This document shows positions 20,229 through 53,005 of a stretch of 64,000 nt of DNA, piece after piece. Source of the DNA: Candidatus Latescibacterota bacterium (GTDB lineage Bacteria > Latescibacterota > UBA2968). Numbering within the stretch: position 1 is the stretch's first letter; the number at the start of each line of letters is the position of its first letter. The notes under the pieces are model-generated. The model was not told where the DNA came from and searched no databases. It saw only the letters and a list, made by a program, of their open reading frames with translations. Position numbers and translations under genes: made by a program. The stretch covers positions 2,944,001 through 3,008,000 of the forward strand of contig OZ220741.1 of the NCBI GenBank assembly GCA_965116885.1, in the 5' to 3' direction.

Positions 20229-20255
20229 AGTATGTCGATATTTCTTCGACATACT
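20229..20255. promoter_or_regulatory. Inverted repeat, probable AbiEi autoregulatory operator
   Basis: AGTATGTCGA-N7-TCGACATACT perfect IR just upstream of abiEi. Confidence 0.7.
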
Positions 20256-20291
20256 GTGTTAAAAATGACAATATTTTTGACGGGAAAAATC

Positions 20292-26242: not shown

Positions 26243-26333
26243 GCACCGACACCACCGAACACAGTTTGGAAGTTTGTATCGGCGATATGAGGATGTAGAA
26301 AAGCCTGATTTTGACGAAAGCGAGCACGTTAAC

Positions 26334-34667: not shown

Positions 34668-34755
34668 GAGGTGGGAAGTAGGAAGTAGGAAGTGTAAGGC
34701 CGGGATGTTCCGCGGGGCGGGATGTCCTATTTTTTTTAGATGCGAGACGCGAGAG

Positions 34756-37700: not shown

Positions 37701-37767
37701 TGGGCGCGTAAGACCTGCTCGTCAGACGATACATCTCGGGCGCGTGGAGATGCGGGCGGTGTTTTGA
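34756..37767 (+). CDS. Large outer-membrane beta-barrel protein of unknown function
   Basis: Signal peptide ending AHA-Q; two SERV..G.LL.R..DY.(V/I)D modules; amphipathic strands; C-terminal Phe (MRAVF). Confidence 0.7.
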   Translation: MSFSTLHIARGIVFFFLCVVTAHAQVPVPEKFTLFDGERVFQADGSRGPFSISDRAIEAASERVWVDGVLLVRDRDYVVDANRALLTLLRDVARGVEIVVRFRQRPLVTAPVVQRRQFQPGEGDGDQPIVRVFSPPVVRERDEEQKLTIGGHKSISVTAGSQHAVHQALQLRISGEVAEGVNLLTVLSDRNLPIGEQGGSKRLQELDRVFFQVNANQVSATLGDLDVAFDGTVFGRYRRQLQGARVFAHREKGQVAAFGAVSRGRWETRRLVTVEGFQGPYSLSGGGLRGQIVPESERVYLNGRLLRRGDGADYTIDYERGHVAFMPEIPIGVESRVTVEYQVIDADMRSRLMGIESRVSLAEGMSVGTTLIRESDRPALSPGIASVHRQLGVVYATYTPWSNARISGEFALSDRNLGSGRGFRMDGAWKARNFEVTGRFRQVGANFEAFERLDRGRAAGRWGWQADTARTAQREGEVAVRWDLGKAFSVVGEYGQHLGAVLTDRKSVGIHAPVGMYRYESLGRGSGEMRRHEGQVEVSMGGVVPGFRFSLENGMGDGVGSSSLFYAIRPRVLPQGVDKQELVWHIGVGEGRNWSWVSELKYRKFRQREAVWQDSLRGWLHTHRAQMTNWKGWIFAGSYTHGEIQIGREHQQTTTHLGRVRLGHNRPGSSHQITYRVSSTRVSQPIFVEVASGLGEYIWEDANGDGLRDVEEFVPDVDGNYVRVYDYGQFAPARDGALGMRVEIDFRRLIDDEHFLSAVALDASLRAERQIATGAKQAAPWDLLGFDADAGILGARRDGLVRLYLFRYHRRGSLRLTARVRDLVNQAFYGGAAEFFVQGGLLGKLRPVNRLELETEFDLGHRAREGAGAFAYRIDGASGALRCAFRSGHKWYLRLGILGGRDWEGIRALRVWHIGVQPEVIYALPGRGRLRGRLDWTRVWATDVAPLFLGLARGNRQGQNWGWRLGMDYRFGKYVSARVMYDGRVRPARQTIHLGRVEMRAVF

Positions 37768-37794
37768 GAATTAAAAATTAAAAATTGAGAATTA

Positions 37795-37826
37795 AATGTA
37801 GGGGCGGTGCCCCTGTGCCCGCCCGT
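37795..37826 (+). repeat. GTAG-type REP-like palindrome, copy 2
   Basis: Identical to 4231-4262. Confidence 0.85.
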
Positions 37827-37865
37827 CGTGCAAAGGTGCAGATGAATACGGATCAATACATAAAA

Positions 37866-39503
37866 ATGTGGCGGTATTTGTTTTTTGCGTTGTGGATAGT
37901 CTGTGTCGCGTCCAGCGCGGAGGGAGAGGTGCGTGTGATTGTGAAGCGCGTGCAGGTTGAAGGTGCGCGGTCTGTACGTGTGGGCGATGTGCGGGGTTGG
38001 CTGGTTACGCGGGTGGGCGTTGCGGTGGATTCGGCGTTGTTGCGAAAGGATGTTCACCGCATTTTGAAGGGGTATCAGGCGCGTGGGTTCTGGCGGGTGG
38101 CGGTGGCTTTTCCCAGGATTGCAATGCGGGGGGGCGACGCGACGGTGACTTTTGGAGTTACTGAAGGTGTGCGAACGCGGGTTGCGTCTGTGGAGGTGCG
38201 CGGCGATCTGGTCTTTGATCAATCGGAGGCTTTTGGTCTCACGCGGGGTATGGTGTTGCTCGAAAGTGATTTGGAACAGCGGTTGGATCGTTTGTTGCGT
38301 TTTTATGAAGACCGGGGCTATCCGTTTTGTGCATTGCGCCCAGATGTGCAATTTGATAGTGATAGCGCGCGCGTGCAGGTGGTGGTGTCGCCCGGTCCTC
38401 TGGTGCATGTCGATGTGGTGCGTTTTGAGGGCAATGAAACGACGCGGGAAGATGTTTTGTTGCGGCATATTTCGTTTGTTGCGGGCGAGGTCTATGACCA
38501 GCGGCGCGTGGATACTTTTGTGCGGCAGTTGCAAAGTTTGCCATTTATCGACCGGGTTTATACGCCTGAACTCGTATCTACCGGTGATGAGATGGCGCTT
38601 GTGATCGGTGTAGAGGAATCGCGTCACACGCGCATTGAAGGGGTGCTTGGGGTGGGGTCTGGACAGAGTTTGACCGGGGAGATCGCGCTCGATGTTCTGA
38701 ATTTTTCTGGTGGAGGACGAGAGGGGTACGCGCTGTGGTCGCGGCAAGGGGTGGGGTTGTCGAATTTGCGGGTTTCGTATCGCGAGCCCTATGTGTTAAA
38801 TAGTCCGCTTTCAGGTTGGGGTGCAGTGGAGATGGTTGCGCGCACGGGGTATGTGACGCATAGGTTTGGGGGCGGCGCAGATGTTGCTGTGGGTGAGGGT
38901 GCGCGGTTTTTTGGCGGTGTTGCACACAGGCGCGTTTTGCCCGATTCCGCAGGGCTAGGGTTTTATGAGACCGAGAGGATGTGGTCTCTCGATTCGGGTG
39001 TTCGATTTGATCGGCGAGGGCAGGCCCTGGGCGGTTGGAAAGCGGAGATCAGAGGAGAGATCGGCGAGGTTTCAGATGGGGTCCGGCGGGTGCAGTGGGG
39101 TGTTGATGGACAGGTGTTTTTGCCGGTGGGCAGGCAGTCTGTTATCGTGGGACGGGCGCGCGCTTTTTGGGTGGGACAAGAGGGGGATGTGCCGCAGTCT
39201 GCCGGTATCTGGCTGGGGGGCGCACAATCGCTGCGGGGCTATCGAGAAGAGATGTTCTGGGGAACAAATGCGGGGTGGGTCAATGTGGAATGGCGGTGGT
39301 TGTTGGGGCCGAAAGCGCGACTTTTTGCCTTTGTCGATGCGGGAAGGATCGCGGGGGCAGGGTCGCGTTCATGGCCCGTGTCCTACGGCCTGGGGCTTTT
39401 GGCAAATGGACGGATGGGCGCGGTTGGGATAGATTATGGATTGCCACGGGGCGAGAGTTTGGGGCAGGGTATGGTGCATGTGCGGATGGTCAGTGCGTTT
39501 TAG
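37866..39503 (+). CDS. Omp85 (BamA/TamA) family protein with POTRA domains
   Basis: POTRA-like segments (FEGNETTREDVLLR), LGG.QSLRGY lid motif, FVDAG, C-terminal Phe. Confidence 0.88.
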   Translation: MWRYLFFALWIVCVASSAEGEVRVIVKRVQVEGARSVRVGDVRGWLVTRVGVAVDSALLRKDVHRILKGYQARGFWRVAVAFPRIAMRGGDATVTFGVTEGVRTRVASVEVRGDLVFDQSEAFGLTRGMVLLESDLEQRLDRLLRFYEDRGYPFCALRPDVQFDSDSARVQVVVSPGPLVHVDVVRFEGNETTREDVLLRHISFVAGEVYDQRRVDTFVRQLQSLPFIDRVYTPELVSTGDEMALVIGVEESRHTRIEGVLGVGSGQSLTGEIALDVLNFSGGGREGYALWSRQGVGLSNLRVSYREPYVLNSPLSGWGAVEMVARTGYVTHRFGGGADVAVGEGARFFGGVAHRRVLPDSAGLGFYETERMWSLDSGVRFDRRGQALGGWKAEIRGEIGEVSDGVRRVQWGVDGQVFLPVGRQSVIVGRARAFWVGQEGDVPQSAGIWLGGAQSLRGYREEMFWGTNAGWVNVEWRWLLGPKARLFAFVDAGRIAGAGSRSWPVSYGLGLLANGRMGAVGIDYGLPRGESLGQGMVHVRMVSAF

Positions 39504-39695
39504 TTTGCAAAAGAAAGCGCGAATAGACGAATAGACGAACCCCGCTCAACCACCCAAAGCATGTGCTGACATGATGTAAGTCAGTATTGCTGCGAACTCA
39601 GTAGCTGATAAACTGCTGGCGCAGTTGTACCCTATTCCGTAGATTCGCTGATTCGCTGATTCGTAGATTCGCTGATTCGTAGAAAGGAGAGTTTT

Positions 39696-41621
39696 ATGTT
39701 GAGCAGGATTCGCAGTATCATGTTGGTAACACTTGCCGCAGGTCTCATGTGGGGCTGTGGCGGCGAGCGCGGGATGGAGCCTTCCGGAGTAGATGAGCCG
39801 ATTGGACGTCCGCTGAGTAAAATGGCTGTAGCGGGTGGTGGTATGTCTCAAGCGACGGTGGTGGCGACTGTGTCGCAAGATGATGCGCCTGTGGCAGGTG
39901 CGATGGTCGAGTTTGCGCGTTCTGTTGCCGGGCAGGCTCCGGATTATCGGTGGTCGGGTATGACCGATGATATGGGGCGCGTTACGGTGGAGATATCCGG
40001 TCAGGTGAGTGGATATTATCAGGCGCGTGCGTCTCGGGATGGCTCTGTGATGGGGCGTTGGTCGAGTATCCCCATCAATGGAGGCTATACGTCAACAGTT
40101 GCGTTGCCCATTGGTGGACAGGCACAGGTGACGGGTACGTCTGAGCTCATATCAGTTGGTGTTGTTGTGTCTCAAACGGGGCGATTTTCATCAATTGGAC
40201 AAGGGTATATCAATGGCTTTGAAATGGCTCTTGAAGAAGTGAATTCACAACTGAGTGATGCGACTTTGAGGTTTATTGTTGAGGATGATCAGAGCACGAT
40301 AGAAGGCGCTACTGCGGCGTATAATAAACTCATTCATGAAGATGGCGTGCCAGCCATTCTCGGTGTTTATACTTCTACTATGGTGCGCGCGGTATTTCCC
40401 ATTGCACAGGAAAATGAGGTTGTGGCGATCAGTCCTACCTCGGCCGCACGCGGTCTCAGCGCGATTGGCGATTTTGTCTTTCGCGTCGCCCTTACCGTTG
40501 ATGCGTTAATTCCGGGCAGTGTAAAATTGACCCGGGAAAAACTGGGCTATGAGCGCGTGGCCACAATGTATCAAAGCATGGATGTTTTTTCGCAGAGTAG
40601 CGATGAGGTGCTAAAGCAGGCCTTCAGTGAGAATGGGGTCGAGGTTCTGACTACTGAGACTTTTGAAACTGGCGCTATGGATCTTTCCACGCAATTTTCC
40701 CGGATTGTGGCACTGAATCCAGATGCGATTTTTGTTTCGGCTATATCAGCAGGGCGGACACAGGCTCTGATCGATGGGGGACAACACGGCATTCCTATAT
40801 TGATGCCTCTGCTCACTATGGATGAGGTAGAACGCGCCGGGGAGGCAGCCGAGGGGGCAATTAGTTTTACGTATTGGAGCAGTACGGGCAATGTACCGGC
40901 CAATCGCGCCTTTGTTGAGAATTATATGGCGAAATACGACGGTGCCGAGCCGGGCCGATTCGCCGCCGTGTCCTACGCGACGGTTCATATTTTGGCAAAG
41001 GCTATTGCAGATGCCGGGTCCTCTGATTCGCGAGCGATTCGGAACGCATTGGCTCAGATCGAGAATTTGGATACGGTTTTGGGTGCGTTTTCGTTTGATG
41101 CCAATGGAGACGCGGTTTACGATCCGGCTGTTCTGATTGTCAAGGATGGGAAGTTTGAGGTGTTTGATACAAAAACTGCCTTGGCGACAATCGGCGAGAC
41201 GAACGAAAGCGGTGTGACCGGAAAAGCGGTTTTCACACAAATCGGCGATAATATCAAGCTCGTCGTCTCGCTCGCTAATGCGTCTGCAGGCGAACACGCT
41301 GTCCATATCCACGCAACTGGCGATTGCAGTGCGCCAGACGGGACATCGGCTGGCGGGCATTGGAATCCTACTGGCGTTGCACACGGAAAATGGGGAGAAG
41401 GTGAATTTCATCTCGGCGACATTGGCAATATGACTGTCGATGAGCAAGGCATGGGGAAGATTGAACTGACGACAAATCTGTGGGAGATGAACACTGGCTC
41501 AGACATAGATATTGTTGGAAAAGCGATCATCGTCCATGCGGGTGCTGATGATTTTGTCTCACAACCTTCGGGCAATGCTGGCGCACGCATCGGTTGCGGC
41601 GTGATTGAGTTAGGGCAGTAA
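39696..41621 (+). CDS. Lipoprotein: N-terminal beta domain + LivK-type solute-binding domain + Cu/Zn superoxide dismutase domain
   Basis: Lipobox LMWGC; TG...G, EDD, FRV, G.FSFDANGD (Peripla_BP_6-like); HAVHIH, C..SAGGHWNP, HG, HLGD.GN, VHAGADD, GNAGARIGCG (SodC). Confidence 0.9.
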   Translation: MLSRIRSIMLVTLAAGLMWGCGGERGMEPSGVDEPIGRPLSKMAVAGGGMSQATVVATVSQDDAPVAGAMVEFARSVAGQAPDYRWSGMTDDMGRVTVEISGQVSGYYQARASRDGSVMGRWSSIPINGGYTSTVALPIGGQAQVTGTSELISVGVVVSQTGRFSSIGQGYINGFEMALEEVNSQLSDATLRFIVEDDQSTIEGATAAYNKLIHEDGVPAILGVYTSTMVRAVFPIAQENEVVAISPTSAARGLSAIGDFVFRVALTVDALIPGSVKLTREKLGYERVATMYQSMDVFSQSSDEVLKQAFSENGVEVLTTETFETGAMDLSTQFSRIVALNPDAIFVSAISAGRTQALIDGGQHGIPILMPLLTMDEVERAGEAAEGAISFTYWSSTGNVPANRAFVENYMAKYDGAEPGRFAAVSYATVHILAKAIADAGSSDSRAIRNALAQIENLDTVLGAFSFDANGDAVYDPAVLIVKDGKFEVFDTKTALATIGETNESGVTGKAVFTQIGDNIKLVVSLANASAGEHAVHIHATGDCSAPDGTSAGGHWNPTGVAHGKWGEGEFHLGDIGNMTVDEQGMGKIELTTNLWEMNTGSDIDIVGKAIIVHAGADDFVSQPSGNAGARIGCGVIELGQ

Positions 41622-41700
41622 TAGAAAAAGTTTTGTTAAACGGTGTGAGCGCAAATTAGTGTGCAAAATGGTTCAAATTTTGGGTCACAAATTGGGCCTT

Positions 41701-44700
41701 TTAAGGGCGTTTGATCCCCAGTTTTTTCATTTTGCTATACAGGGTAGAGGGCGGTAATCTTAGCAGTGCCGCTGCTCCTCTATCTCCACTTATCTGATAG
41801 TTGGTGATTTTGAGTACTTCGAGAATATAGTGTCGCTCATATTCGTCCAAAGGCACGACTTCGCGGTCTTGAGAAACTGTCACGGTGTTCTTTTTAAGAT
41901 CGGGAGCCGGGCCTCCGATTCGGAAACCATACAGTCCCAGATCACCCACTTCGATTTGCGAACCGCGACACACGATTACGGCTCGCTGTATCGTATGCTC
42001 CAATTCTCGCACGTTTCCAGGCCAATCGCAGGTTTGTAACGCCTCGATTACCTCTGGCGTCAAAGGAGCTATTTGCTTGCCCAGGTGTGTGGCCATGCGA
42101 TTTTTGAAAAACTCGGCAAGGTGCGGGATGTCTTCCTTGCGCTCGCGCAAGGGGGGGAGATAGATTGGAAAAACCTGGAAACGATAATACAGGTCCTCGC
42201 GGAATGCACCTGAACTGACCAGTTCCTCAAGATTGCGATTGGTCGCTGCCACAATGCGCGCCTGCACCTTCAGCGTCTCGCTACCTCCAACGCGCTCATA
42301 AGTGCCCTCTTCCAGCAAGCGCAACATCCTGACCTGTGTTTGCGGAGCCATATCGCTGACCTCATCCAAAAAGAGCGTGCCGCCCTTCGCCAATTCTACC
42401 TTGCCCAGCCTGCGAGACACTGCGCTGGTAAACGCGCCCTTTTCGTGACCAAACAGTTCACTGTCGATCAGCGTTGCTGGCAACGCTCCGCAGTTGACCT
42501 GTATAAAAGGGCCATCGCTATTGGGACTCTGCGCGTGTAATACCCGCGCAGCCAATCCCTTGCCTACACCCGTTTCGCCTATAAACAGCACCGACAGATC
42601 AGTGGGTACTACCTTTCTGAGCTGGAATTGAAACTGTTGCAAAACCTCGCTGTGACCGATAAACTCGTTATCCCCCTGAGTATTGAGTGTCGCAGTCAGG
42701 CCCTCAATACGCGGATCTGGCTCTACCGAGAGTTGAATCTGCGCGATCCCTGAGTAATTGAGGTCGCGATCTATCGCTCTGACCTGAAACGTGTACTCGC
42801 CCGGTGGCAAGTTCTGATAATGCGCCCTCATTTCTCGTGTCGCAGGCTGCCAGTCGGGGTCGTATCCCTTCAGGCGATAGATGTAGAGCATGTCGCGGGG
42901 ATGGGTAGAAAAACTCAGGCTTTTGTATTCAAAAATTACATCTTGATCCATCGTAGATACGATGTCTTCCTTCAGGTTCTCATAGACCTGACCAGCGATA
43001 ACTTGAATCAGGCGAATCAGGGGCGGCGTCTGTCGCTGGCGGTAGCGCACCAGAGTGTTTTGGGCTGTACCGAAATAGAAGGCGCCATCGCGGTCTTCGA
43101 GTATTTTGAGCACCGGTCCTATATGCGGTGATTTGATGGTCTGGAAAAGCTGGCCATCGTAGTGAACTACGCCGCCGTCTGTGCCGAGCCAGAGGCGACC
43201 TTGAGAGTCCTCAAGCAAGCAATGGATGCGGTTGTTCGGTAAACCGTCTTCAGTCGTGAAGGTCTGGAAGGTGCTACCATTAAAACAGGCAAGACCGCCC
43301 TGGGTAGCCACCCACAGGTTGCCATGGCGGTCTAATAGCAGGTCACTGACCCTGTCGTCGATCAGCCCGTCTTCAACCCCGTAAAATTTGAGGTCATCTT
43401 TGGGATGCCAGCGTGCGAAGCCCTTGTCGATGTCAGAGAAATGTTGATGAGCGAGATAAAAATAAACCTCGCCATTGCGCCCGGTAATCACAGTACCAAT
43501 GTAGCTGAAAGGATCCTTATTTTTATCTTTAACAAAAATGGTTTGGAACTCTTCGCCCCGCTGCCAAGTGAGTCTCAAAGGACTGGCAAAAAGTGCTTTT
43601 TTTTCTTTGTCTTTTTTATTTTCCCAATGACCAAAAAAAAATTGCCCTTCCCCATCCTGGGCAATTGCACAAATACTGCTTGAACCTGCGGTTGTTTCTA
43701 TTTTTTCTATCTTCTGCCCATCGTAGCGGAATAAGCCATTGACGCCGCCAAACCACAGATACCCGTCGTGGTCTTCGTAGATGGCAAAACAGTTGTTGAT
43801 ATCAAAGCCATTCTCAGGGCCTGCAAAGTCAAGGTCCTCTCCATCAAAGCGAAAGACGCTATTGCTTTGATATTTAAAAACAGGCGACACAGACCCCACC
43901 CATATATCACCGCGACTATCTTGTACGATCTGCGAGATCTCGCTCACGCTTTCAGAGGCCCTTGCACGAAAGTCGAAAATGCTGATACTATGCGCATCGT
44001 AAAGGCCGACGCCTCCCCAGGTGGCAAACCAATACTGATGCTCGCGATCCTGGAACACGGCTTTGACTGCGGGATGGGGCAGACCATCGGCAGGGGTAAA
44101 CCTGCTGAACCCATCACCGTCTTGATAGAGCACCCCGTCTGAAGTGCTAAACCACATCCGACCTGTACCGTCGCACTGAATTTTGCGCAGGTCACTATCC
44201 AAATCGACTTGAACAGGCTGGAAGGTACCATCGGTATAGCACCAGAGTCCGTTCTGAGGTCCACGCTGACCAACCCACACCTTGCCGGTATTGTCCCGAC
44301 TCACCGCATAGCTTATATCGACTGTAGGAAACCCCTCTTTCTCTTCGTAGCGGTGGAAAGATGTGCCATCAAAGCGAATGAGGTGGCTAAAGCCAAACCA
44401 CAGATAACCTTCCAGGTCCTGGGCAATGCCCCGACACTGTTTACGACGAAGCAGCGGCTCGTAGTGCTTAAGGTAGAGCGGCATCAGGTCGTGGAACACA
44501 GTCCCGTCGTAATATCCCATAGTCCTGTGACCACCACACCATATACGCCCTTCGCGGTCTTCGTAGATGAACTGGACAGCACGGCCTGCTATCCCGTCGT
44601 CTTCCAAATGATGGAAGTTTGTACCGTCGTACCAGCAGACGCCATTTAATGTGCCGAACCACAACCGATTCTGACTGTCCTTTTGAATAAAATAAACGCG

Positions 44701-44895
44701 TTCGCTAATAAGACCGTCCTGTCGCGTAAAATTTCGAAACACATCTCCATCAAAGCGACTAACGCCGTTATCACAGGTGGCGAACCAGAGATAGCCCGCG
44801 CTGTCTTCGGCGATGTGTTCAATGCGCATCCCAGCCAGACCATCGGCTATAGAATAAGTCCGCCAGGTGCCTTTGTGGTTAAGTGATTTGAGCAT
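41701..44895 (-). CDS. Beta-propeller (Reg_prop) + Y_Y_Y + sigma54 enhancer-binding AAA+/HTH protein, copy 1
   Basis: DGL..I.ED..G.LW..T..G repeats; YIYRLKGYD..W...Y.NLPPGEYTFQVRA; GETGVGK, GAFTSA, LFLDE, WPGNVREL, Fis-type HTH. Confidence 0.93.
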   Translation of the reverse strand: MLKSLNHKGTWRTYSIADGLAGMRIEHIAEDSAGYLWFATCDNGVSRFDGDVFRNFTRQDGLISERVYFIQKDSQNRLWFGTLNGVCWYDGTNFHHLEDDGIAGRAVQFIYEDREGRIWCGGHRTMGYYDGTVFHDLMPLYLKHYEPLLRRKQCRGIAQDLEGYLWFGFSHLIRFDGTSFHRYEEKEGFPTVDISYAVSRDNTGKVWVGQRGPQNGLWCYTDGTFQPVQVDLDSDLRKIQCDGTGRMWFSTSDGVLYQDGDGFSRFTPADGLPHPAVKAVFQDREHQYWFATWGGVGLYDAHSISIFDFRARASESVSEISQIVQDSRGDIWVGSVSPVFKYQSNSVFRFDGEDLDFAGPENGFDINNCFAIYEDHDGYLWFGGVNGLFRYDGQKIEKIETTAGSSSICAIAQDGEGQFFFGHWENKKDKEKKALFASPLRLTWQRGEEFQTIFVKDKNKDPFSYIGTVITGRNGEVYFYLAHQHFSDIDKGFARWHPKDDLKFYGVEDGLIDDRVSDLLLDRHGNLWVATQGGLACFNGSTFQTFTTEDGLPNNRIHCLLEDSQGRLWLGTDGGVVHYDGQLFQTIKSPHIGPVLKILEDRDGAFYFGTAQNTLVRYRQRQTPPLIRLIQVIAGQVYENLKEDIVSTMDQDVIFEYKSLSFSTHPRDMLYIYRLKGYDPDWQPATREMRAHYQNLPPGEYTFQVRAIDRDLNYSGIAQIQLSVEPDPRIEGLTATLNTQGDNEFIGHSEVLQQFQFQLRKVVPTDLSVLFIGETGVGKGLAARVLHAQSPNSDGPFIQVNCGALPATLIDSELFGHEKGAFTSAVSRRLGKVELAKGGTLFLDEVSDMAPQTQVRMLRLLEEGTYERVGGSETLKVQARIVAATNRNLEELVSSGAFREDLYYRFQVFPIYLPPLRERKEDIPHLAEFFKNRMATHLGKQIAPLTPEVIEALQTCDWPGNVRELEHTIQRAVIVCRGSQIEVGDLGLYGFRIGGPAPDLKKNTVTVSQDREVVPLDEYERHYILEVLKITNYQISGDRGAAALLRLPPSTLYSKMKKLGIKRP

Positions 44896-44992
44896 AAAAC
44901 CTCATGATACAGGTAAAAATTTTAGTTCATAGTGGGGCTCCTTTCTAACTCCTGAGAAGGTAACCGCCAAAACGAGTCTAGTCCACTAACAC

Positions 44993-45316
44993 TTACAAGT
45001 CCTCGACTCTTTCGTACTCATTACGGGCACGACGTAATAGTCCCGTCTTCTTAGTATCAACGACAGGACGAGCTTCCACATTATTCGTAACGGACATTGC
45101 CAAAGCCACAACCCATCCGATAAACGTCCATCCAAGAAATAAATTGATTACCAGAATGGAGGCTCGGTTTCTATGGTATCGAAAAAATGCAGTAATTGCC
45201 GGAGCGAAGTAAAGTGCCAGTAAGAGCACCAGAATAAACTGACCCATCCCGGTATTTAATAAAGTGTCCCTGAGATCTAACAACGCTAAATACAGCATTA
45301 ATAAGTTATCATACAT
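44993..45316 (-). CDS. Superinfection immunity protein (T4 Imm-like)
   Basis: LYFAPAITAFFRYHRNRASILVINLFLGWTFIGWVVALAMS matches the Imm signature YF.P..A..R.H.N...I..NL.LGWT.IGW..AL; start 45316 or 45247. Confidence 0.85.
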   Translation of the reverse strand: MYDNLLMLYLALLDLRDTLLNTGMGQFILVLLLALYFAPAITAFFRYHRNRASILVINLFLGWTFIGWVVALAMSVTNNVEARPVVDTKKTGLLRRARNEYERVEDL

Positions 45317-45419
45317 ATCTAATTTCTCATCGTGTAGTTTGACAAGAAATAAACCGACAAGCCTCAAAACAGTTCAAATTTTGGGTCACATATTCTTCTT
45401 TGCGAAAAAACTTTAAACT

Positions 45420-45437
45420 AAGCAATATCCGTGCCAA
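45420..45437 (-). promoter_or_regulatory. Sigma54 (-24/-12) promoter
   Basis: Minus strand TTGGCACGGATATTGCTT, with exact GG-N10-GC spacing. Confidence 0.88.
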
Positions 45438-45539
45438 CGTGAACTTTTTACAAGACTTTTTTAATTATAAAGTATTATTTATATTGAATTAATTAGAGAA
45501 TAGTATATAAAAGTTAGTCTGAAATTTTATATTTCTAAT

Positions 45540-45573
45540 CACTATATATCGTGGTATTTAACCATATATCGTG
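45540..45573. promoter_or_regulatory. Paired enhancer (UAS)-like sites
   Basis: ATATATCGTG at 45544 and 45564 (20-bp period), near-palindrome CACGATATATCGTG, about 105-140 bp upstream of the -24 box. Confidence 0.7.
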
Positions 45574-45605
45574 ATTGCCAATATTAAGAATATATGATGC
45601 ACAAT

Positions 45606-48600
45606 TTAAGGAAGTTTGATGCCCAGTTTTCTCATTTTGCCATACAGGGTAGAAGGCGGTAATCTCAGCAGTGCCGCTGCGCCCCTATCCCCACTTATCT
45701 GATAATTGGTGATCTTGAGCACTTCGAGAATATAGTGTCGCTCATATTCGTCCAAAGGTACGACTTCGCGGTCTTGAGAAACTGTCACGGTGCGCCTCTT
45801 TAGATCAGGAGCCGTGCCTTCGATTCGAGAACCATGCAGTCCCAGATCCTCCGCTTTGATTTGAGAACCGCGACACACGATTACGGCTCGCTGTATCGTA
45901 TGCTCTAATTCCCGCACATTGCCTGGCCAATCGCAGGTTTGCAACACCTCGATAACCTCTGGCGTCAAGGGAACTATTTGCTTGCCCAAATGTGTGGCCA
46001 TGCGATTTTTGAAAAACTCAGCGAGGTGCGGGATATCCTCTCTGCGCTCGCGCAAGGGAGGGAGAAGAATCGGAAAAACCTGGAAACGATAATACAGATC
46101 CTCGCGGAAAGTACCTGAACTGACCATCTCCTCCAGATTGCGATTGGTCGCAGCCACAATGCGCGCCTGTATCGATAGCGTCTCACTACCCCCAACGCGC
46201 TCATAAGTGCCCTCTTCCAGCAAGCGCAACATCCTGGCTTGTGTTCCCACAGCCATATCGCTGACCTCATCCAAAAAGAGCGTACCACCCTTAGCCAGTT
46301 CCACCTTGCCTAACCTGCGGGACTCTGCGCTGGTAAACGACCCTTTCTCGTGACCAAACAGTTCACTGTCGATCAGCGTTTCAGACAGTGCTCCGCAGTT
46401 GACCTGTATAAAAGGTCCATTACAATAGGGACTCTGCGCGTGTAACACCCGCGCAGCCAATCCCTTGCCTACACCCGTCTCGCCTATAATCAGCACGGAT
46501 AGATCAGTGGATGCTACCTTTCTGAGTTTGCTTTGAAACTGTTGCAAAACCTCGCTTTGACCGATAAACTCGTTATCCCCCTGGTTATTGAGTGTTGCAG
46601 TCAGGCCCTCAATACGCGGATCTGGCTCTACCGAGAGTTGAATCTGCGTGATCTCTGAGTAATTGAGGTCGCGATCTATCGCTCTGACCTGAAAGGTGTA
46701 TTCGCCCGGCGACAAGTTCCGGTAGTAGGCCCGCATCTCTCGGGTCGCTGGTTGCCAGTCAGCATCGTAGCCCTTCAGGCGATAGATGTAGAGCATGTCG
46801 CGGGGATGGGTGGAAAAACTCAGGCCCTTATACTCGAAAATCACCTGCTGATCTGTGGTAGATACAATGCCTTCCTGCAGGTCCTCATAGACCTGATCGG
46901 CGACAACTTGAAGCAGGCGAACCCTGGGCGTAGTCTGTCGTTGGCGATAGCGCACCAAAGAATTTTGGGCTGTGCCGAAATAGAAGTTTCCGTCACGAGC
47001 TTCGAGTATTTTGAGCACCGGTCCTATATGGGGTGACTTGATGGTCTGGAAAAGCTGGCCATCGTAGTGAGCCACACCGCCGTCTGTACCAAGCCAGAGG
47101 TGGCCTCGCCGATCTTCAAGCAAGCAACGGATGCGGTTGCTCGGCAGACCGTCTTCAGTAGTGAAGCTCTGGAAGGTATTGCCATCAAAGCAACAAAGAC
47201 CGCCCTGAGTAGCCGCCCACAGGTTGCCATTGCGGTCTAATAGCAGGTCATTGACGTTGTGGTCTATCAGTCCATTTTCAATTCCATAAAACTTAAGCCC
47301 ATCTTCGGGATGCCAGCGTGCGAAACCCTTAGCGTTGTCGGAAAAATTTTGGTGAATGAGATGAAAATAGACCTCGCCATTGCGCCCGGTAATCACAGTA
47401 CCAATGTAGCTGAAAGGGTCCTTATTTTTATCTTCTACAAAAATGGCTTGGAACTGCTCACCCCGCTGATAAATGATCTTCAAAGGACTGACAAGAAGAT
47501 CTTTTTTTTCGATTATGTTGTTTCTTTCCCAATGGCCAAAAATGAATCGCCCTTGCGAGTCCTGGGTAATTGCACTGACACTTCTTTTTCCTAAACCTGC
47601 GATTGTTTGCATTTTTTTTATCTTCTTCCCATTGTAGCGGAACAAGCCATTGTGACCACCAAACCACAGGTCCCCATCGCAGTCCTCGTAGATAGCGAAA
47701 CAGTTGTCGATATCAAAGCCATCCTCAATGCCTACAAAGTCAAAGTCCTCGCCATCAAAGCGAAAAACGCTTTTCTCCAGCCGGTTGAGAGCGGGAGCTA
47801 CATACCCGACCCACATATCACCTCGCCGATCTTGTGCGATCTGGGAGATCTCGCTCACTCTTTTAGAACCCCTTGAGCTGAAGTCGAAAACGCTGATACT
47901 ATGTGCATCGTAAAGCCCGACGCCACCCCAGGTGGCGAACCAGAACTGATGATCGCGATCCTGCAACACAGCTTTGACTGCGGGATGGGGCAGGCCATCG
48001 TCAGGGGTAAATCTGCAGAATCCATCACCGTCTTGATAGAGTGCCCCTTCTGAAGTGCTAAACCACATTCGACCTTCCCGGTCACACTGGATTTTGCGCA
48101 GTGGGCTACCCAAATTTATCTCAACCGGCTCAAAGGTGCCATGGGTATAGCACCAGAGTTCGTTTTTGCTTTCGTGCTGCCCCACCCACACCTTACCGGT
48201 ATTGTCCTGCCCCACAGCATAGTTTATCTTGCCTCGCGGAAACCCCTCTTTCTCTTCATAGCGGTGGAAGGATTGACCATCGAAACGGATGAGGTAGTTA
48301 AAGCCAAACCACATGTGGCCTTCTGGGTCCTCGACAATGCCCCGGCACTGGTTGGGCCACTCAGGAGAAGGTGGTTCCTGATACTGCTGAAGGTAGAGCG
48401 GAATCATGTCTCGGAACACAGTACCGTCGTAATATCCCAGGGTCCTGTGACCGCCACACCATATACGCCCTTCATTATCTTCGTAGATGAACTGGACAGG
48501 TCGGCGTGCGATCCCGGTATCTTCCAAATGGCGGAACTCTGATCCGTCATACCAGCAGACACCACTTAATGTACCGAACCACAACCGCTTCTGACTGTCC

Positions 48601-48815
48601 TTTGAAATAAAATAAACGTGGTCGTTAACAAGACCATTCTGTTTGGTAAAATTCTGAAACTCGTCTCCATCGAAGCGACTAACACCGTTGTCCCATGTGG
48701 CGAACCAGAGATAACCTTCGCTATCCTCGGCGATGTGTTCAATGCGCATCCCGGCCAGGCCATCGGCTATAGAATACGTCCGATAGGTGCCTTTGCGGTT
48801 AAGTGATTTGACCAT
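45606..48815 (-). CDS. Beta-propeller (Reg_prop) + Y_Y_Y + sigma54 enhancer-binding protein, copy 2
   Basis: Collinear paralog of copy 1; GETGVGK, GSFTSA, WPGNVREL; start set at ATG 48815 by the GAGGT RBS and by homology. Confidence 0.93.
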   Translation of the reverse strand: MVKSLNRKGTYRTYSIADGLAGMRIEHIAEDSEGYLWFATWDNGVSRFDGDEFQNFTKQNGLVNDHVYFISKDSQKRLWFGTLSGVCWYDGSEFRHLEDTGIARRPVQFIYEDNEGRIWCGGHRTLGYYDGTVFRDMIPLYLQQYQEPPSPEWPNQCRGIVEDPEGHMWFGFNYLIRFDGQSFHRYEEKEGFPRGKINYAVGQDNTGKVWVGQHESKNELWCYTHGTFEPVEINLGSPLRKIQCDREGRMWFSTSEGALYQDGDGFCRFTPDDGLPHPAVKAVLQDRDHQFWFATWGGVGLYDAHSISVFDFSSRGSKRVSEISQIAQDRRGDMWVGYVAPALNRLEKSVFRFDGEDFDFVGIEDGFDIDNCFAIYEDCDGDLWFGGHNGLFRYNGKKIKKMQTIAGLGKRSVSAITQDSQGRFIFGHWERNNIIEKKDLLVSPLKIIYQRGEQFQAIFVEDKNKDPFSYIGTVITGRNGEVYFHLIHQNFSDNAKGFARWHPEDGLKFYGIENGLIDHNVNDLLLDRNGNLWAATQGGLCCFDGNTFQSFTTEDGLPSNRIRCLLEDRRGHLWLGTDGGVAHYDGQLFQTIKSPHIGPVLKILEARDGNFYFGTAQNSLVRYRQRQTTPRVRLLQVVADQVYEDLQEGIVSTTDQQVIFEYKGLSFSTHPRDMLYIYRLKGYDADWQPATREMRAYYRNLSPGEYTFQVRAIDRDLNYSEITQIQLSVEPDPRIEGLTATLNNQGDNEFIGQSEVLQQFQSKLRKVASTDLSVLIIGETGVGKGLAARVLHAQSPYCNGPFIQVNCGALSETLIDSELFGHEKGSFTSAESRRLGKVELAKGGTLFLDEVSDMAVGTQARMLRLLEEGTYERVGGSETLSIQARIVAATNRNLEEMVSSGTFREDLYYRFQVFPILLPPLRERREDIPHLAEFFKNRMATHLGKQIVPLTPEVIEVLQTCDWPGNVRELEHTIQRAVIVCRGSQIKAEDLGLHGSRIEGTAPDLKRRTVTVSQDREVVPLDEYERHYILEVLKITNYQISGDRGAAALLRLPPSTLYGKMRKLGIKLP

Positions 48816-49031
48816 AAAAAACCTCATGATACAGGTAAAATTTTAGTTCACATCGGATAATAAATCGCGAATATAAAACCCTTCTTAATCTGTGTATTAT
48901 TATAACGAAATTTCAAGGAAACAGTTGTGGTTCACGAGCCTTCTTATCTGAAGGGTTGAACTGAAACAAGCTGGTTTTTCACTACATTATTCCCACTTGA
49001 TTTTTGAATTTTAAAACTATACATTTAGCAA

Positions 49032-49129
49032 TAGAGTGGGTTATGGTTTGTTGGACCATTCCTGTTCTGTATGTTGCGGCAGGGGGCCATAGGCTGACTA
49101 CCAATCCGACCTGGCCTTCTGCCGTTTTT
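49032..49129 (+). ncRNA. Candidate small RNA, cis-antisense to the leader of activator copy 2
   Basis: TTGATT-17-TACATT promoter (48997-49025), long GC stem 49077-49124, T5 tail. Confidence 0.45.
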
Positions 49130-49231
49130 GCTGCAATTAAAAATAAATTTCTGTTTTTTTAATCTGATATTAAAGAAAGCAAAAGTCAAGATTTTCTATT
49201 ATATGTAGAATGATTCAACACATATAACATG

Positions 49232-49268
49232 AGAAAAAGGCGCGTTTTGAACGCGCCTTTTTCTTTTT
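49232..49268. terminator. Bidirectional intrinsic terminator
   Basis: AGAAAAAGGCGCGTT-TTG-AACGCGCCTTTTTCT. Confidence 0.85.
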
Positions 49269-49279
49269 CGTCAGGAGGT

Positions 49280-50098
49280 TTAGAAAAAGGGAAAAAGTTT
49301 TGGGATGTTGTCATCTGTGAGCGCGCTGCCGTATTCGCAGCCTTCATAAGCTTCGGCATATTGGATTTTTGAGCCGCGTTCTTGTCCGTAGTATTTGATC
49401 AGTAGGTCGCGATAGCGATCCGCTATCGCGCGAGATTGATTGAGGCGATGCCGCAACCATTTGCGGCGGTTTTGTGGCGATTCGGGTACCTGGTCGAGGT
49501 GGCCCGCGTTAAAGGGTAGCCATTCGTACATTTGCGATGTGTGGCAGTGTAGCATGTCGAGTTTTTTGTCGATGACATCGTCTATGGCTATGACGACATC
49601 GGGAGAGAAAGGTTGAGGCTTTTGGAAGTTGTCGCTCAGGTACGCAATGACGGGGTTGTACGACAGGGCGGGTGTGTCTGTGCAGATGTTGGGCACGGTG
49701 ACCATGTATGCCGAGTCTTGCACGAGGATGGATGTGTAGCGGTGATCGGGATGGTAATCGTTGGGGCGATGGGTCAGGATGAGGTCTGGCGTGTAGTTGC
49801 GAATCTGGCGGATGATTTTTTTGCGATTTTCAAGGGTGGGTTCAAGTTCGCCGTCGTGGTTGTCGAGTACGTGGTATTCGATGCCCGCGACTGCACCTGC
49901 TGCCTGGGCTTCGGCGCGGCGACGACGGGCGAGTTCAACGCCGCCAATTTCGTGATGGCCCGCGTCGCCGTTGGTGACAGAGACAAATTTTACCTCGTGC
50001 CCGAGGCTTGCGTATTTGATGGCGATGCCGCCCGCTTTGATATCGCAATCGTCGGGATGGGCGCCAAAGACGATGATTTTCAGGGAATGGTTGTTCAT
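49280..50098 (-). CDS. PIG-L/LmbE family deacetylase
   Basis: AHPDD, T.GD.G, R..EA, YHPDH. Confidence 0.93.
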   Translation of the reverse strand: MNNHSLKIIVFGAHPDDCDIKAGGIAIKYASLGHEVKFVSVTNGDAGHHEIGGVELARRRRAEAQAAGAVAGIEYHVLDNHDGELEPTLENRKKIIRQIRNYTPDLILTHRPNDYHPDHRYTSILVQDSAYMVTVPNICTDTPALSYNPVIAYLSDNFQKPQPFSPDVVIAIDDVIDKKLDMLHCHTSQMYEWLPFNAGHLDQVPESPQNRRKWLRHRLNQSRAIADRYRDLLIKYYGQERGSKIQYAEAYEGCEYGSALTDDNIPKLFPFF

Positions 50099-50107
50099 AG
50101 TGGTTCC

Positions 50108-51292
50108 TCAATTTAATGGGTTTTCTTGTTTTCCATATAGGCGATAGAGGCCCACACCGCAGGCGAGTGCGCCGATACAAAATAAGACGGAGATGCCAAA
50201 GGGCCAGATGGGACCCCAGTCGATGAGTTTTCCACCGCCGAGGCTACCGGAGAGCATGCCCAGGCTCCAGGCGAGGTGGGCTGCGCCGACGACGCGGCCT
50301 TTTTCGTCTTCGCGGGCGATTAATTGTATGAGGCCCGGCATGGTGGTCGATAGAGACCAGGCCGAGGCAGTTGCGAGAATGCCAAAGGCATAAATACCAG
50401 TAAGGGTGTGCGCGGTCAGGGCAAGGCCGAGGGCGCTGATGGCGACGAGTGATGCGGAGACGAGGATGGGACGCCAGCGCCCAATGCGGTCGCAAAGCCG
50501 ACCGGTGAGGACCTGAAAACAAGCTGCGATGATCAGGCTGATGGCACTGTAATTCGTGGCTGCGGTGCTGGTGCCCGCGATGCGAAAGATGAGCAGGGGC
50601 AGGAGCAGGGTGACGGCGCCCCAATAGCTGGTGGGCAGGTAGCGGATGCCCAACAGGAGGCATACGTCGAGACGGCGGAATAGTTGAATGAGTGCGGATA
50701 GGTTGCGGCTATTGTCGGCAGATTTTGGCGAGGGGATCGCAGGGAGGGTCAGGATGCTCATCAGGACGAGCACTACCCCTGCGAGTGTGATGCAAAAACC
50801 GAGGGTTTGAAATCCATACGCATCGGCGATGGGGCCAGAGAGAAAATTTCCCGAAGCCGAGCCGAGGGTGTTGCCGAGAAAATAACCTGCTGATGCGATG
50901 CCGATGACAGAGGATGGGGCTGCGCTGATGAGATAGCTTTGTCCTCCGGCGCTGTTAAATCCGGATGAGATGCCGATGCCGGTACACAGGGCAGTCAGGA
51001 GGAGAGGGTCGCCGCTGTAAAAAATAACGCCGGCGAGAATAGGGCCCAAAGTGCCGAGGATGTAAACGGGTTTGACACCCCAGGTATCGGCAAGGCGGCC
51101 CGCAGGTACGGCAAAGACACCGCCTAAAATGAGAAATGCTGCGCGCAATCCCCCGGAAAAGAGGGGTGTGCCGAGGAGGTCTGCTTCGACATATACGGGG
51201 AGGAGGGTGTTGAGGGGGGCAGAGACAAAGCTGCTGAAAAAGGAGACAATGAGCAGGGCGATGAAACGGCGATTGAGGAGTTCGGAATACAT
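50108..51292 (-). CDS. MFS transporter
   Basis: About 12 hydrophobic segments; motif A GRLADTWG and GRLCDRIGR. Confidence 0.93.
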   Translation of the reverse strand: MYSELLNRRFIALLIVSFFSSFVSAPLNTLLPVYVEADLLGTPLFSGGLRAAFLILGGVFAVPAGRLADTWGVKPVYILGTLGPILAGVIFYSGDPLLLTALCTGIGISSGFNSAGGQSYLISAAPSSVIGIASAGYFLGNTLGSASGNFLSGPIADAYGFQTLGFCITLAGVVLVLMSILTLPAIPSPKSADNSRNLSALIQLFRRLDVCLLLGIRYLPTSYWGAVTLLLPLLIFRIAGTSTAATNYSAISLIIAACFQVLTGRLCDRIGRWRPILVSASLVAISALGLALTAHTLTGIYAFGILATASAWSLSTTMPGLIQLIAREDEKGRVVGAAHLAWSLGMLSGSLGGGKLIDWGPIWPFGISVLFCIGALACGVGLYRLYGKQENPLN

Positions 51293-51317
51293 TTTTTAAT
51301 TTTTTTTATTTTCGCCC

Positions 51318-51348
51318 TTGACTCTCCAGTTACTGGAAGGTGTATATT
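51318..51348 (+). promoter_or_regulatory. MerR-type promoter/operator
   Basis: TTGACT-19 bp-TATATT with the dyad TCCAGT-T-ACTGGA in the spacer. Confidence 0.85.
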
Positions 51349-51393
51349 GTCGGTTGAAGGCCTTCACACACCCGTATCACATGGAGAGAATCC

Positions 51394-52197
51394 ATGCTCA
51401 AAATAGGAGAATTTTCCAGGCTTGTCAACGTGCCGGTCAAGACGTTGCGTTACTACGATGAAATCGGTTTGTTCAAATCCGATTATATCGATGAGCAAAC
51501 CGGCTATCGCTTTTACTCATTCGAGCAACTTCCGCGGCTCAATCGCCTGCTGGCGCTCAAAGACCTGGGGATGTCGCTGAGCCAGATTGATCAAATGTTG
51601 AAAGAAAATCTTTCGGCTGATCAACTGCGCGATATGCTTTCGCAGAAACAGGTCGAACTCGAAGATCTTGCCAGAGATATACGGGAACGCATTGCCCGCG
51701 TGGAAGCCCGACTGAGTCTTATCGAAATGGAGGATAAAATGCCAGATTATGAAGTTGTCACCAAAACAGTTGATCCGGTTCTGGTCGCTTCCAAACAGGG
51801 GGCCGTTCCACACTTTGCTGCCATCGGCTCTGTGATGGACCGCCTGTACAATGGGGTTGTCGCCCATGTTGTGAAACACAAGGGACAATTTGCGGGCCCG
51901 GGCATTACGGTATGGCATGAAAATTTTAAACCCGAGGCAAACATACCGATTAAAAAAGCCATACCAGAAGGTGATGATGTCAAGGTCCACGAGTTGCCGG
52001 GTGATCAAATGGCGTGCCTGGTGCATCACGGAGGTTTTGAAGGTTTTCCTCTGGCCTATCAAGCGGGCGTTCAGTGGATTGAGGCCAATGGCTATGAGAT
52101 CACCGGACCGAGCCGGGAAGTGTATTTGCAATTTAGACCCGATGGCAATCCAAAGGATTATGTGACGGAGATACAGTTTCCCGTGGCAAAAGTATGA
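51394..52197 (+). CDS. MerR family regulator with GyrI-like effector domain (BmrR/BltR-like)
   Basis: IGEFS, TLRYYDEIGL, TGYRFY; C-term REVY...TEIQFPV. Confidence 0.95.
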   Translation: MLKIGEFSRLVNVPVKTLRYYDEIGLFKSDYIDEQTGYRFYSFEQLPRLNRLLALKDLGMSLSQIDQMLKENLSADQLRDMLSQKQVELEDLARDIRERIARVEARLSLIEMEDKMPDYEVVTKTVDPVLVASKQGAVPHFAAIGSVMDRLYNGVVAHVVKHKGQFAGPGITVWHENFKPEANIPIKKAIPEGDDVKVHELPGDQMACLVHHGGFEGFPLAYQAGVQWIEANGYEITGPSREVYLQFRPDGNPKDYVTEIQFPVAKV

Positions 52198-52219
52198 GTT
52201 TGAAAGTGCAACATTAGAG

Positions 52220-52254
52220 AAATACCGGGATGGTTTTGTGTCCCGGTATTTTTT
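52220..52254 (+). terminator. Terminator after the merR-family gene
   Basis: AAATACCGGGA...TCCCGGTATTT plus T run. Confidence 0.8.
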
Positions 52255-52282
52255 GTAGGGGTGGGTTTTAAACCCGCCCGTA
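52255..52282 (+). repeat. GTAG-type REP-like palindrome
   Basis: GTAGGGGTGGGTTTTAAACCCGCCCGTA. Confidence 0.65.
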
Positions 52283-53005
52283 TATGAAGTCCGATTTAAA
52301 TTTTTCGATGCAGTCGTGGCGGCTGCCTTCAAAGAGGTAGATTTTGCCGCGTATGGTCGCGGTTTCTTCGGGCGCGAGGGCGCCTGCGCGAATCGATTGG
52401 TGCATGCAGCGCCAGGGGTTGTGACCCTGAACGGAGAGAAAGTCTGCCCAGGCTATGCCCGCCACCCATGTGCGATCTGTGGATTCGCGTATCAGAATGC
52501 CGCCTGTGGCATTGATGGGCGATGTGGGCCATTTGTCAGACCAGACGGTTTCGGTATCTATTGCGTTGCGATAGGTGTGGTTGTAGTGTATGTCGCGATG
52601 GATGAGGGGGACCAGGCCTTCTTCGGCGAGGAAATAGGTGCGCTCGTGGTCGTCGTCAAAAAATGCCGGGGTTTCGGAGACTTCGGGCTGTTTGCCAGGG
52701 TTAAAGCAGGGAATGATCGCGGCAATTTCGGGCCATGTGCGGTCGGTTTTGTTGGTGATGGAGAGTAGTAGATCCGCTCCATTTTCACGCCCTGTGACGT
52801 TGAGGCGCAGGCCGAGGTTGGGGTGTTCGAGGACACCCGCATTGTCGTCCAGTGTTTTTTGCGGTACATGCGCGCCACCTGTGTGCTGGCCCAGATGTAC
52901 GGCTTCAAACATGTTCCATTCGTAGAACCAGAGGTACATGGTCAGATCATCTCGTCCATCGGGCGCGAATGAAAATCCGCGTCGCCATTTATTTAATGTG
53001 ATCAT
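52268..53005 (-). CDS. Hypothetical protein (Trp-rich, beta-rich)
   Basis: 245-aa ORF filling the gap and co-oriented with the Nudix gene; no family recognised. Confidence 0.7.
   Translation of the reverse strand: MITLNKWRRGFSFAPDGRDDLTMYLWFYEWNMFEAVHLGQHTGGAHVPQKTLDDNAGVLEHPNLGLRLNVTGRENGADLLLSITNKTDRTWPEIAAIIPCFNPGKQPEVSETPAFFDDDHERTYFLAEEGLVPLIHRDIHYNHTYRNAIDTETVWSDKWPTSPINATGGILIRESTDRTWVAGIAWADFLSVQGHNPWRCMHQSIRAGALAPEETATIRGKIYLFEGSRHDCIEKFKSDFIYGRV

Follow-up and report, generated by a model that had tools for sequence, protein, structure and literature searches.

A tandemly duplicated propeller-sensor sigma-54 activator and a probable cis-paired enhancer-promoter cassette at an Imm-family gene of Candidatus Latescibacterota

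We analysed a stretch of 64,000 nt from Candidatus Latescibacterota (assembly GCA_965116885.1, contig OZ220741.1, positions 2,944,001 to 3,008,000), here called the window, whose position numbers are used throughout. The unit under study lies on its minus strand at 41701-48827 and comprises activator copy 2 (45606-48827 as the longest open reading frame, ORF), a regulatory gap of 289 bp, a small gene for an Imm-like protein of 107 aa (44993-45316), a gap of 97 bp (44896-44992) and activator copy 1 of 1064 aa (41701-44895). We consider it probable that this locus represents one tandemly duplicated member of a set of cytoplasmic one-component sigma-54 activators that has expanded in the lineage, and that each activator of the set has a modular enhancer-promoter cassette as its partner in cis. 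Sigma-54 control of the small gene by the flanking activators appears well supported by sequence comparison, with likely feedback through copy 1. The product of the small gene belongs to the T4 Imm family and is predicted to be a small protein of the inner membrane. A first-pass annotation had read the locus as an inducible anti-phage circuit of soluble propeller-Y_Y_Y activators, paired palindromes, an AT-rich spacer, a consensus sigma-54 promoter and a T4 Imm-like gene. Every element that it listed was found, either exactly where it had been placed or 1-2 nt away.

The domain composition of the activators was assessed with Pfam. Copies 1 and 2 both match Reg_prop (E about 3e-50), Y_Y_Y (4e-13 and 1e-13, respectively) and Sigma54_activat PF00158 (4e-63 and 8e-64), and both carry AAA_lid_14 and the Walker A sequence GETGVGKG. 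Together with Imm_superinfect in the small protein, all four families that had been suggested for a profile search were matched. The input domain is a double propeller plus Y_Y_Y of about 740 aa, homologous to the periplasmic domains of hybrid sensors (4a2l, E 5e-40; 3v9f, E 4e-38), and the AAA+ region is homologous to the NtrC, NifA, FleQ and PspF structures. The Pfam scan found no HisKA, HATPase, REC or AraC domain in the activators, all their scores against NCBIfam equivalogs were far below the cut-offs, giving no named regulator, and PADLOC returned only RtcR/PspF-type AAA-HTH models (HTH, helix-turn-helix), through the AAA+ region. Hydropathy analysis revealed neither a signal peptide nor a segment resembling a transmembrane (TM) helix in the window activators, whose top 19-residue Kyte-Doolittle means are 1.05 (copy 1) and 1.14 (copy 2). 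In all 37 activators compared, this maximum is at most 1.59 and peaks in soluble-domain sequence, mostly near Walker A. The domains and the hydropathy bear out the proposal of soluble activators. The duplication spans about 3.2 kb (~44935-41701 versus 48857-45606) at ~84% nt identity and runs from ~40 bp before the start codons to the stop codons. Comparison of the start regions points to the ATG at 48815, homologous to the start of copy 1, as the likely true start of copy 2. The propellers of the two copies are 73-76% identical, whereas Y_Y_Y, AAA+ and HTH reach 88-89%, and the HTH segments differ at four positions near the C-terminus.

Relatives were fetched with copy 1 as query, using six copy-1-specific peptide words. 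This yielded 33 loci (L numbers), 31 of them labelled as Latescibacterota/Latescibacteria metagenome-assembled genomes, one as Rhodothermaceae and one being a weak propeller match from Chitinophagales. The count of paralogues per genome is a lower bound, with at least five loci on chromosome OX638329.1. Locus L004 is syntenic with window positions 33754-52847 at 89-92% nt identity, and the synteny of L001 reaches as far as the end of copy 1, beyond which it is lost. Both contain an orthologue of copy 2 (L001 3820-7023, L004 4079-7291).

The regulatory gap between copy 2 and the Imm-like gene holds the putative cassette. Its distal part is a candidate enhancer (upstream activating sequence, 45540-45574) of two 13-nt repeats, CACGATATATGGT at 45573-45561 and CACGATATATAGT at 45553-45541, which lie 20 bp apart and begin 33 bp after the stop codon of copy 2. 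The second repeat is a 12/14 palindrome. Both copies follow the consensus CACGATATAT(G/A)GT and are the sole such sites in the window. They are conserved in L001 and L004, and sites of this type are also found in L005 and in a second cassette that L001 carries. The adjoining spacer (45438-45539) has a GC content of 16.7%, compared with about 46-57% for 2-kb blocks of the window, so that the paired palindromes (45540-45573) and the AT-rich spacer of the first-pass annotation are both present. Within this spacer, TAAATAATACTTTATAATTAA (45461-45481, 45 nt upstream of TGGCAC) matches the family consensus box AAAAYAAYNCTTTAYGARTAT and is a candidate site for a bending protein, which we tentatively call IHF-like. 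The sigma-54 promoter TTGGCACGGATATTGCT (45421-45437), 170 bp after the copy-2 stop codon, is an exact TGGCACG-N4-TTGCT with GG at 45435-45434 and GC at 45423-45422. Transcription would start near 45410, placing the operator centres ~137 and ~157 bp upstream. The predicted 5′ leader of ~94 nt (45317-45410) is strongly conserved in L001 and L004, and in L001 it contains an insertion of ~143 bp formed by a repeated leader element.

Within the window, an exact TGGCAC-N5-TTGC occurs twice, the other match being antisense within the RNase E/G gene, and the number of sigma-54 matches with at most one mismatch (8, versus 6.3 expected) is not significant. We regard the promoter as more than a chance match because of the comparative evidence, not because of the window statistic. 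The TGGCAC-N5-TTGC core is invariant across the three genomes, whose flanks differ by 8-12%; the next base is A in L001 and L004 and T in the window. No sigma-54 match was found upstream of copy 2, and scans of the window for sigma-70 promoters (9 versus 9.7) and terminators (10 versus 8.1) stayed at background. No terminator-like site was predicted across 44895-45606, and the RNA of the 289-bp regulatory gap shows an unremarkable fold (z = -0.10, no terminator). Since no terminator-like site is predicted in the 97-bp gap and a GAGG lies 5 nt before the ATG of copy 1, the Imm-like gene and copy 1 are likely co-transcribed. It is probable, as had been proposed, that the promoter also switches on more activator.

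To place the promoter in a family context, we searched 675 kb of related loci plus the window with the strict pattern TGGCA[CT]-N5-TTGC[AT]. The pattern occurs 38 times in the 675 kb, compared with a mean of 1.16 and a maximum of 5 in 100 block shuffles. A second count, with at most one mismatch to the sigma-54 consensus and GG and GC fixed, was made within 700 bp of the activators of L001-L032 and found a match at 32 of the 35 genes, which supports the idea that such promoters are served by the activators beside them. As in the window, promoters most often follow the stop codon at a distance of 156-439 bp, in the orientation of the gene (24 genes); in addition, 10 promoters are divergent at 257-353 bp upstream and 3 lie upstream on the same strand, some genes having more than one. 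The box AAAAYAAYNCTTTAYGARTAT was found with at most four mismatches at offsets -41 to -54 in 32/38 strict promoters versus 7/5000 random 65-nt windows, and the cassettes share the flank TCACATTGGCAC. Their distal part carries two or three palindromes of the form NNNN-ATAT-NNNN, which are the same within a cassette and different between cassettes. In 10 cassettes, including that of the window, a strict palindrome lies at -113 to -117 from TGGCAC, with a sequence that differs per type. Most cassettes also contain a long inverted repeat of 16 bp, GAGCCAATCCGACTAT ... ATAGTCAGATTGGCTC, followed by a T-run (among them those of L007, L009, L012-L015, L017, L018 and L028-L031). In downstream and divergent cassettes alike it has the orientation of the promoter and separates the distal palindromes from the conserved box; it may act as an insulating terminator. 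The window cassette is a shortened form that has the right arm of this repeat but not the left.

The sequence of the operator follows that of the HTH. Activators with STLYTKMKK pair with GACGTTATAACGTC in 3/3 cases (L008, L011, L026) and those with STLFNKIKR pair with GGCCATTTATGGCC in 2/2 (L003, L019). STLFS(K/R)IKR pairs with GGGCG-type sites (L002, L010, L025), and NYQISG...STLY(S/G)KM pairs with the window (type-A) site in the window, L001, L004 and L005. This tracking is the pattern expected of a cis-paired activator and operator, and it lends support to such a pairing without amounting to proof.

Several points weigh against the interpretation as a cis-paired activator-cassette unit. The HTH_8 matches of copies 1 and 2 are weak (20.4 and 17.9 bits, below the 22-bit cut-off); NCBIfam alignments of the activators reach the C-terminus and the HTH segment is conserved across paralogues. 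The loop that contacts sigma-54 in this class is not the canonical GAFTGA but GAFTSA in copy 1 and GSFTSA in copy 2, with F and T kept. Among the 37 activators, GAFTSA occurs 24 times, GAFTGA 9 times and GAFTNA 3 times; GSFTSA is exclusive to copy 2 of the window, and the copy-2 orthologues in the relatives have GAFTGA. The co-variation of HTH and operator could reflect co-inheritance of a gene with its cassette rather than binding. Because the left arm of the inverted repeat is missing, read-through from copy 2 into the Imm-like gene is possible, and the insulation of the window cassette may be poor. Additionally, the transcription start, the sigma-54 dependence and the co-transcription of copy 1 are inferred throughout. 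The shortened cassette, the odd GSFTSA loop of copy 2, the lack of a predicted terminator between copy 2 and the Imm-like gene, and a sigma-70-like match (9/12) that overlaps the promoter site would also fit a different explanation, namely that promoter and repeats are inert relics of the duplication and that the Imm-like gene owes its expression to transcription running on from copy 2 or to a housekeeping promoter that escaped recognition. On the other hand, the exact consensus core is invariant across three genomes with flanks that are 8-12% different, the geometry equals that of 24 other downstream cassettes and the conserved box is present in the window cassette. We give the relic explanation almost no credence.

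The small protein is a true member of the Imm_superinfect family, as had been suggested. It matches PF14373 with E 2.6e-16 and 59.7 bits (cut-off 27.9), a score comparable to the 58.2 bits of T4 Imm itself. It is 26% identical to T4 Imm over 57 aa (BLASTP, E 5e-7), matches phrog_1039 ‘immunity to superinfection’ with 4.8e-24, and has relatives in 1092 phage records (tblastn). No NCBIfam family and none of the PADLOC models matched it. Hydropathy places two TM helices at about 24-46 and 52-77, an AlphaFold2 model has them at 23-44 and 51-77, and the model adds an N-terminal helix (2-21) and a charged C-terminal helix (88-106), with a pLDDT of 71.8 and a pTM of 0.27. A Foldseek search of the model against BFVD gave no match at E <= 0.001; the weak top matches are phage immunity proteins and add nothing independent. 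The likeness to T4 Imm and its phage relatives lies in the two TM helices and the motifs of a 42-aa core, which holds Y..P...A..R and LGW..IGW. Unlike them, the window gene is chromosomal without a prophage, has the extra terminal helices and is preceded by a sigma-54 promoter. The terminal helices are common to four close clusters only; the other 176 database relatives, mostly of about 60-80 aa and from many bacterial phyla, share just the core. A homologue with 83% identity (P0126) lies on a 5.94-Mb contig, OX638317.1. The protein is 96-97% identical in L001 and L004. Compared with L001, 12/324 nt of its gene are changed (3.7%; 8 codons synonymous, 4 non-synonymous), versus 226/3195 nt (7.1%) for copy 1. 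The Imm-like gene is more conserved than the activators.

The cargo of the other cassettes was examined by scanning 37 proteins downstream of promoters, plus further ORFs, with Pfam. The families found are LRR, FGE-sulfatase, WD40, PL8 polysaccharide lyase, TonB-type receptor and multicopper oxidase; further cargo includes giant fn3/cadherin/Calx-beta/PKD proteins, AhpC/redoxin, HAD and several proteins without a family. None of the 37 is Imm-like. By tblastn, the Imm-like gene is present in only 2/33 loci, the orthologous L001 and L004. The genes following the promoter in homologous neighbourhoods turned out to be diverse, with Imm confined to orthologous loci. In L005, an operator of the window type follows a single activator and precedes genes for an unknown 341-aa protein and a 765-aa LRR protein. 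The second L001 cassette (14648-14876), 80% identical to that of the window, precedes a 794-aa protein without clear family, and copy B of L001 is directly followed by a 1111-aa cadherin-like/fn3/Calx-beta protein. Because the same operator type drives LRR and unknown exported proteins in relatives, the activator type of the window appears to belong with regulons of exported, eukaryote-like surface proteins. Such eukaryote-like protein classes are described as abundant in sponge-associated Latescibacterota in the part of the source available to us (PMC12993501). As a separate observation on these operons, L013 carries a gene for an IS605 OrfB / Cas12f-like TnpB protein (1954-3078, minus strand) within a sigma-54-driven operon, directly after an AhpC-like gene.

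The cargo bears directly on the question of phage defence. The locus could be a host-domesticated, inducible superinfection exclusion system, in which the activators detect infection or a phage cue and an Imm-type protein then blocks the entry of phage DNA. To our knowledge, blocking phage DNA entry is the sole activity known for the Imm family. The membership of the small protein in Imm_superinfect is genuine, its family relatives occur in those 1092 phage records, and the annotation of the T4 record states that Imm leaves superinfecting DNA in the periplasm. In Campylobacter jejuni, the chromosomal cj0423 of the Imm family lies in the operon most upregulated by infection with a T4-like phage, according to the available part of PMC6024767, and acidobacterial Imm_superinfect genes outside intact prophages are interpreted in the portion of PMC5900883 at hand as retained immunity genes. 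However, erythromycin too induces the cj0423 operon, the operon has been linked to biofilms, and its function is still called unknown in the accessible text of PMC11595200. At the window locus there is no phage or defence context. A Pfam scan covering all but one of 51 non-overlapping ORFs of at least 80 aa (the remaining ORF, 51517-52332 on the minus strand, overlaps a scanned MerR gene) found no families of phage structure, packaging or integration, confirming that no prophage genes are nearby, and the nearest defence-like genes, AbiEii and an SLFN/AlbA_2 pair, are 15-25 kb distant. In the other examined cassettes this sensor family is associated with non-defence cargo, operators of the window type serve genes for an LRR protein and for unknown exported proteins, and only the 42-aa core is common with phage proteins, the terminal helices being confined to the four close clusters. 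A superinfection exclusion system is, in our view, rather unlikely. The anti-phage circuit of the first-pass annotation has its basis in the family name and is not supported: the sister cargo is diverse, no PADLOC model matches and the Imm-like gene occurs in 2/33 loci. Its statement that the combination is undescribed stands in part: a chromosomal, phage-induced Imm homologue, cj0423, had already been reported (PMC6024767), but in the part of that source seen by us no regulator of cj0423 is known. The cj0423-cj0425 operon resembles the window locus in having a chromosomal, non-prophage Imm_superinfect gene, and cj0423 is strongly inducible; it differs in organism and operon partners, and the available portions of PMC6024767 and PMC11595200 describe no adjacent activator there and do not say whether sigma-54 plays a part.

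The position of the Imm-like gene between the two activator copies and under their promoter, its conservation exceeding that of the activators, and the lineage-specific cytoplasmic helices at both ends of the protein (2-21, 88-106), without counterpart in other family members, would all fit a role not as an effector but as a partner or modulator that tethers or tunes the sensor in a Psp-like logic. As 30/32 related activator loci are without an Imm-like gene, the protein is not a general partner of the family, and we judge this role very unlikely. A further and more speculative idea is that one activator-cassette unit captured both an Imm-family protein and a second, diverged sensor and became a self-amplifying, two-input circuit for a regulated, host-owned barrier to phage DNA entry that responds to a host- or environment-derived cue, with the repeated leader element of ~120 nt adding a post-transcriptional layer. 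This is quite unlikely. The regulons of related activators suggest instead that a signal induces changes to the cell surface or exterior, and they do not point to a dedicated phage sensor.

With the locus taken as a duplicated activator-cassette unit, the following mechanism can be envisaged. The sequences themselves show which parts are present, how they are arranged and conserved, and that activators and cassettes are paired across the family; the other steps are inferred. Copy 2 would be made from its own, non-sigma-54 promoter, and its Fis-type HTH would bind the two CACGATATAT(G/A)GT sites. Sensing of a cytoplasmic ligand by the double propeller and Y_Y_Y might then free the AAA+ domain to oligomerise, while the spacer of 17% GC and the conserved box may bend the DNA. 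The AAA+ ring would open the sigma-54 holoenzyme at the -24/-12 promoter, a step for which the exact consensus, the correct geometry and the conservation in orthologues speak. The transcript would encode the Imm-family protein with two TM helices and, since no terminator intervenes, also copy 1. As the HTH of copy 1 is near-identical to that of copy 2 and its sensor has diverged, copy 1 may act at the same enhancer as positive feedback, as a second input, or both.

Like NtrC, NifA, PspF and FleQ, the window activators possess a Sigma54_activat AAA+ core, a lid and a putative C-terminal Fis-type HTH, and a bendable spacer puts over 100 bp between the candidate enhancer and a -24/-12 promoter. 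They differ from this class in the loop (GAFTSA/GSFTSA instead of GAFTGA) and in the input domain, which is a double propeller plus Y_Y_Y and not REC, GAF, PAS or V4R. The sensor shares Reg_prop and Y_Y_Y with the hybrid two-component sensors of Bacteroides (4a2l/4a2m, 3v9f, 3ott; E 5e-40 to 1e-21). Those sensors bind glycan fragments in the periplasm. Both systems link sensor to DNA-binding output on one polypeptide and have many paralogues per genome, each adjoining its target genes. In contrast to the Bacteroides proteins, the window sensor has no signal peptide or TM segment, which argues for a cytoplasmic location, and HisKA, HATPase, REC and AraC are replaced by a sigma-54 AAA+ output.

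Two further sequence elements were observed at these loci. The first is the element of ~120 nt, with the invariant core GTCGGATTGGTAGTCAGCC ... GCAACATA ... GAATGGTCCA. A covariance model detected 13 copies of it, each in the orientation of the genes. In the window it lies at 49017-49138 (minus strand), ~200-280 nt upstream of the start of copy 2; the other copies are in L001 (3492, 7272, 11257, 14900, 17540), L004 (3752, 11171), L005 (7674, 11421) and L015 (11663, 13914, 17345). Copies follow a sigma-54 promoter at 78-158 nt, separate genes within one operon or lie upstream of an activator, often directly preceding an AAGGAG ribosome-binding site. The element varies at orthologous sites, being present in the imm leader of L001 and absent from that of the window, and present after copy 1 in L004 and absent there in the window. 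No Rfam family was matched. Its single-sequence fold is unremarkable (z = -1.56), and compensatory changes were seen in 4/18 pairs of the model-fitted alignment, a value reached by 1/500 shuffles. The element is a candidate structured leader RNA or small mobile element. The second is an insertion of ~130 bp in L001 (7793-7919), between the imm-like gene and copy B, that is absent in the window and L004. Its ends are inverted over ~17 bp (GATGCTGTTGCCGAATT / AATTCGGCAACAGCATC), CGTTTTGG is repeated at both borders, and it looks like a miniature inverted-repeat transposable element.

The surroundings of the unit are those of an ordinary chromosome, with genes for RNase E/G, ribosomal proteins L21 and L27, malate/lactate dehydrogenase, sulfatases, glutamate dehydrogenase, a succinate-dehydrogenase-type flavoprotein and molybdenum-cofactor synthesis. 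On the 5′ side the unit is bounded by a terminator-like hairpin with a T-run (49232-49264), 3′ of the upstream PIG-L gene. Beside copy 1 ends a convergent gene (39696-41621, plus strand) that encodes an unusual fusion of a weak Big_1 match, a Peripla_BP_6 ligand-binding domain and a C-terminal Cu/Zn superoxide dismutase domain. Farther away, 20800-21801 (plus strand) encodes an AbiEii-type nucleotidyltransferase toxin (Pfam 2.3e-36; PADLOC AbiEii 6.4e-110), and the overlapping ORF just 5′ of it (20151-20951, plus strand) could be its partner. The tandem genes 26274-28022 and 28479-30353 (plus strand) encode proteins with SLFN_AlbA_2 and HATPase_c_4, and the N-terminal 400 aa of the second match the PADLOC pAgo model with 5.8e-26. 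Small eukaryote-like repeat proteins (LRR, MORN) are encoded at 17642-18250 and 4317-4877 (both minus strand), with no sigma-54 consensus match beside either gene.

To estimate the breadth of the family, databases were searched in two ways. A word-indexed search found 4870 proteins at E <= 0.001 among 8000 candidates scored; the best 120 of these each have an identity of 69% or more across the sensor, and one contig accounts for several of them. An exhaustive search of 50%-identity representatives gave 291,987 matches at E <= 0.001, mostly to propeller or AAA+ proteins of other kinds. Among the best 150 representatives, 71 combine Walker A with a GAFTGA-type motif. Of these 71, 67 are without a TM-like segment and 4 have a membrane-bound layout. 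Reg_prop occurs together with Sigma54_activat in 16/16 sampled representatives. Our literature searches found no paper on Latescibacteria and sigma-54 and none that combines Reg_prop or Y_Y_Y with Sigma54_activat; beta-propeller and enhancer-binding protein occur together in no paper among the matches listed, and two genome papers on Latescibacterota/PAUC34f do not mention sigma factors or these regulators. As far as these searches reach, the architecture of a propeller-sensor sigma-54 activator is common but undescribed.

Our data indicate that the locus is a real sigma-54 regulatory unit with Imm-family cargo, whereas its anti-phage label is a hypothesis and not a finding. Sponge- and marine-type Latescibacterota may possess a large paralogous set of such activators, each tied to an operator code of its own. 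The regulatory code is unusually readable, with operator palindromes that keep a fixed offset and vary together with the HTH. In an uncultured phylum of symbionts, the family opens a direct way to the regulons of eukaryote-like surface proteins. To phage biology the locus gives a chromosomal Imm homologue with a defined candidate promoter and a candidate regulator, both of which the C. jejuni case lacks.

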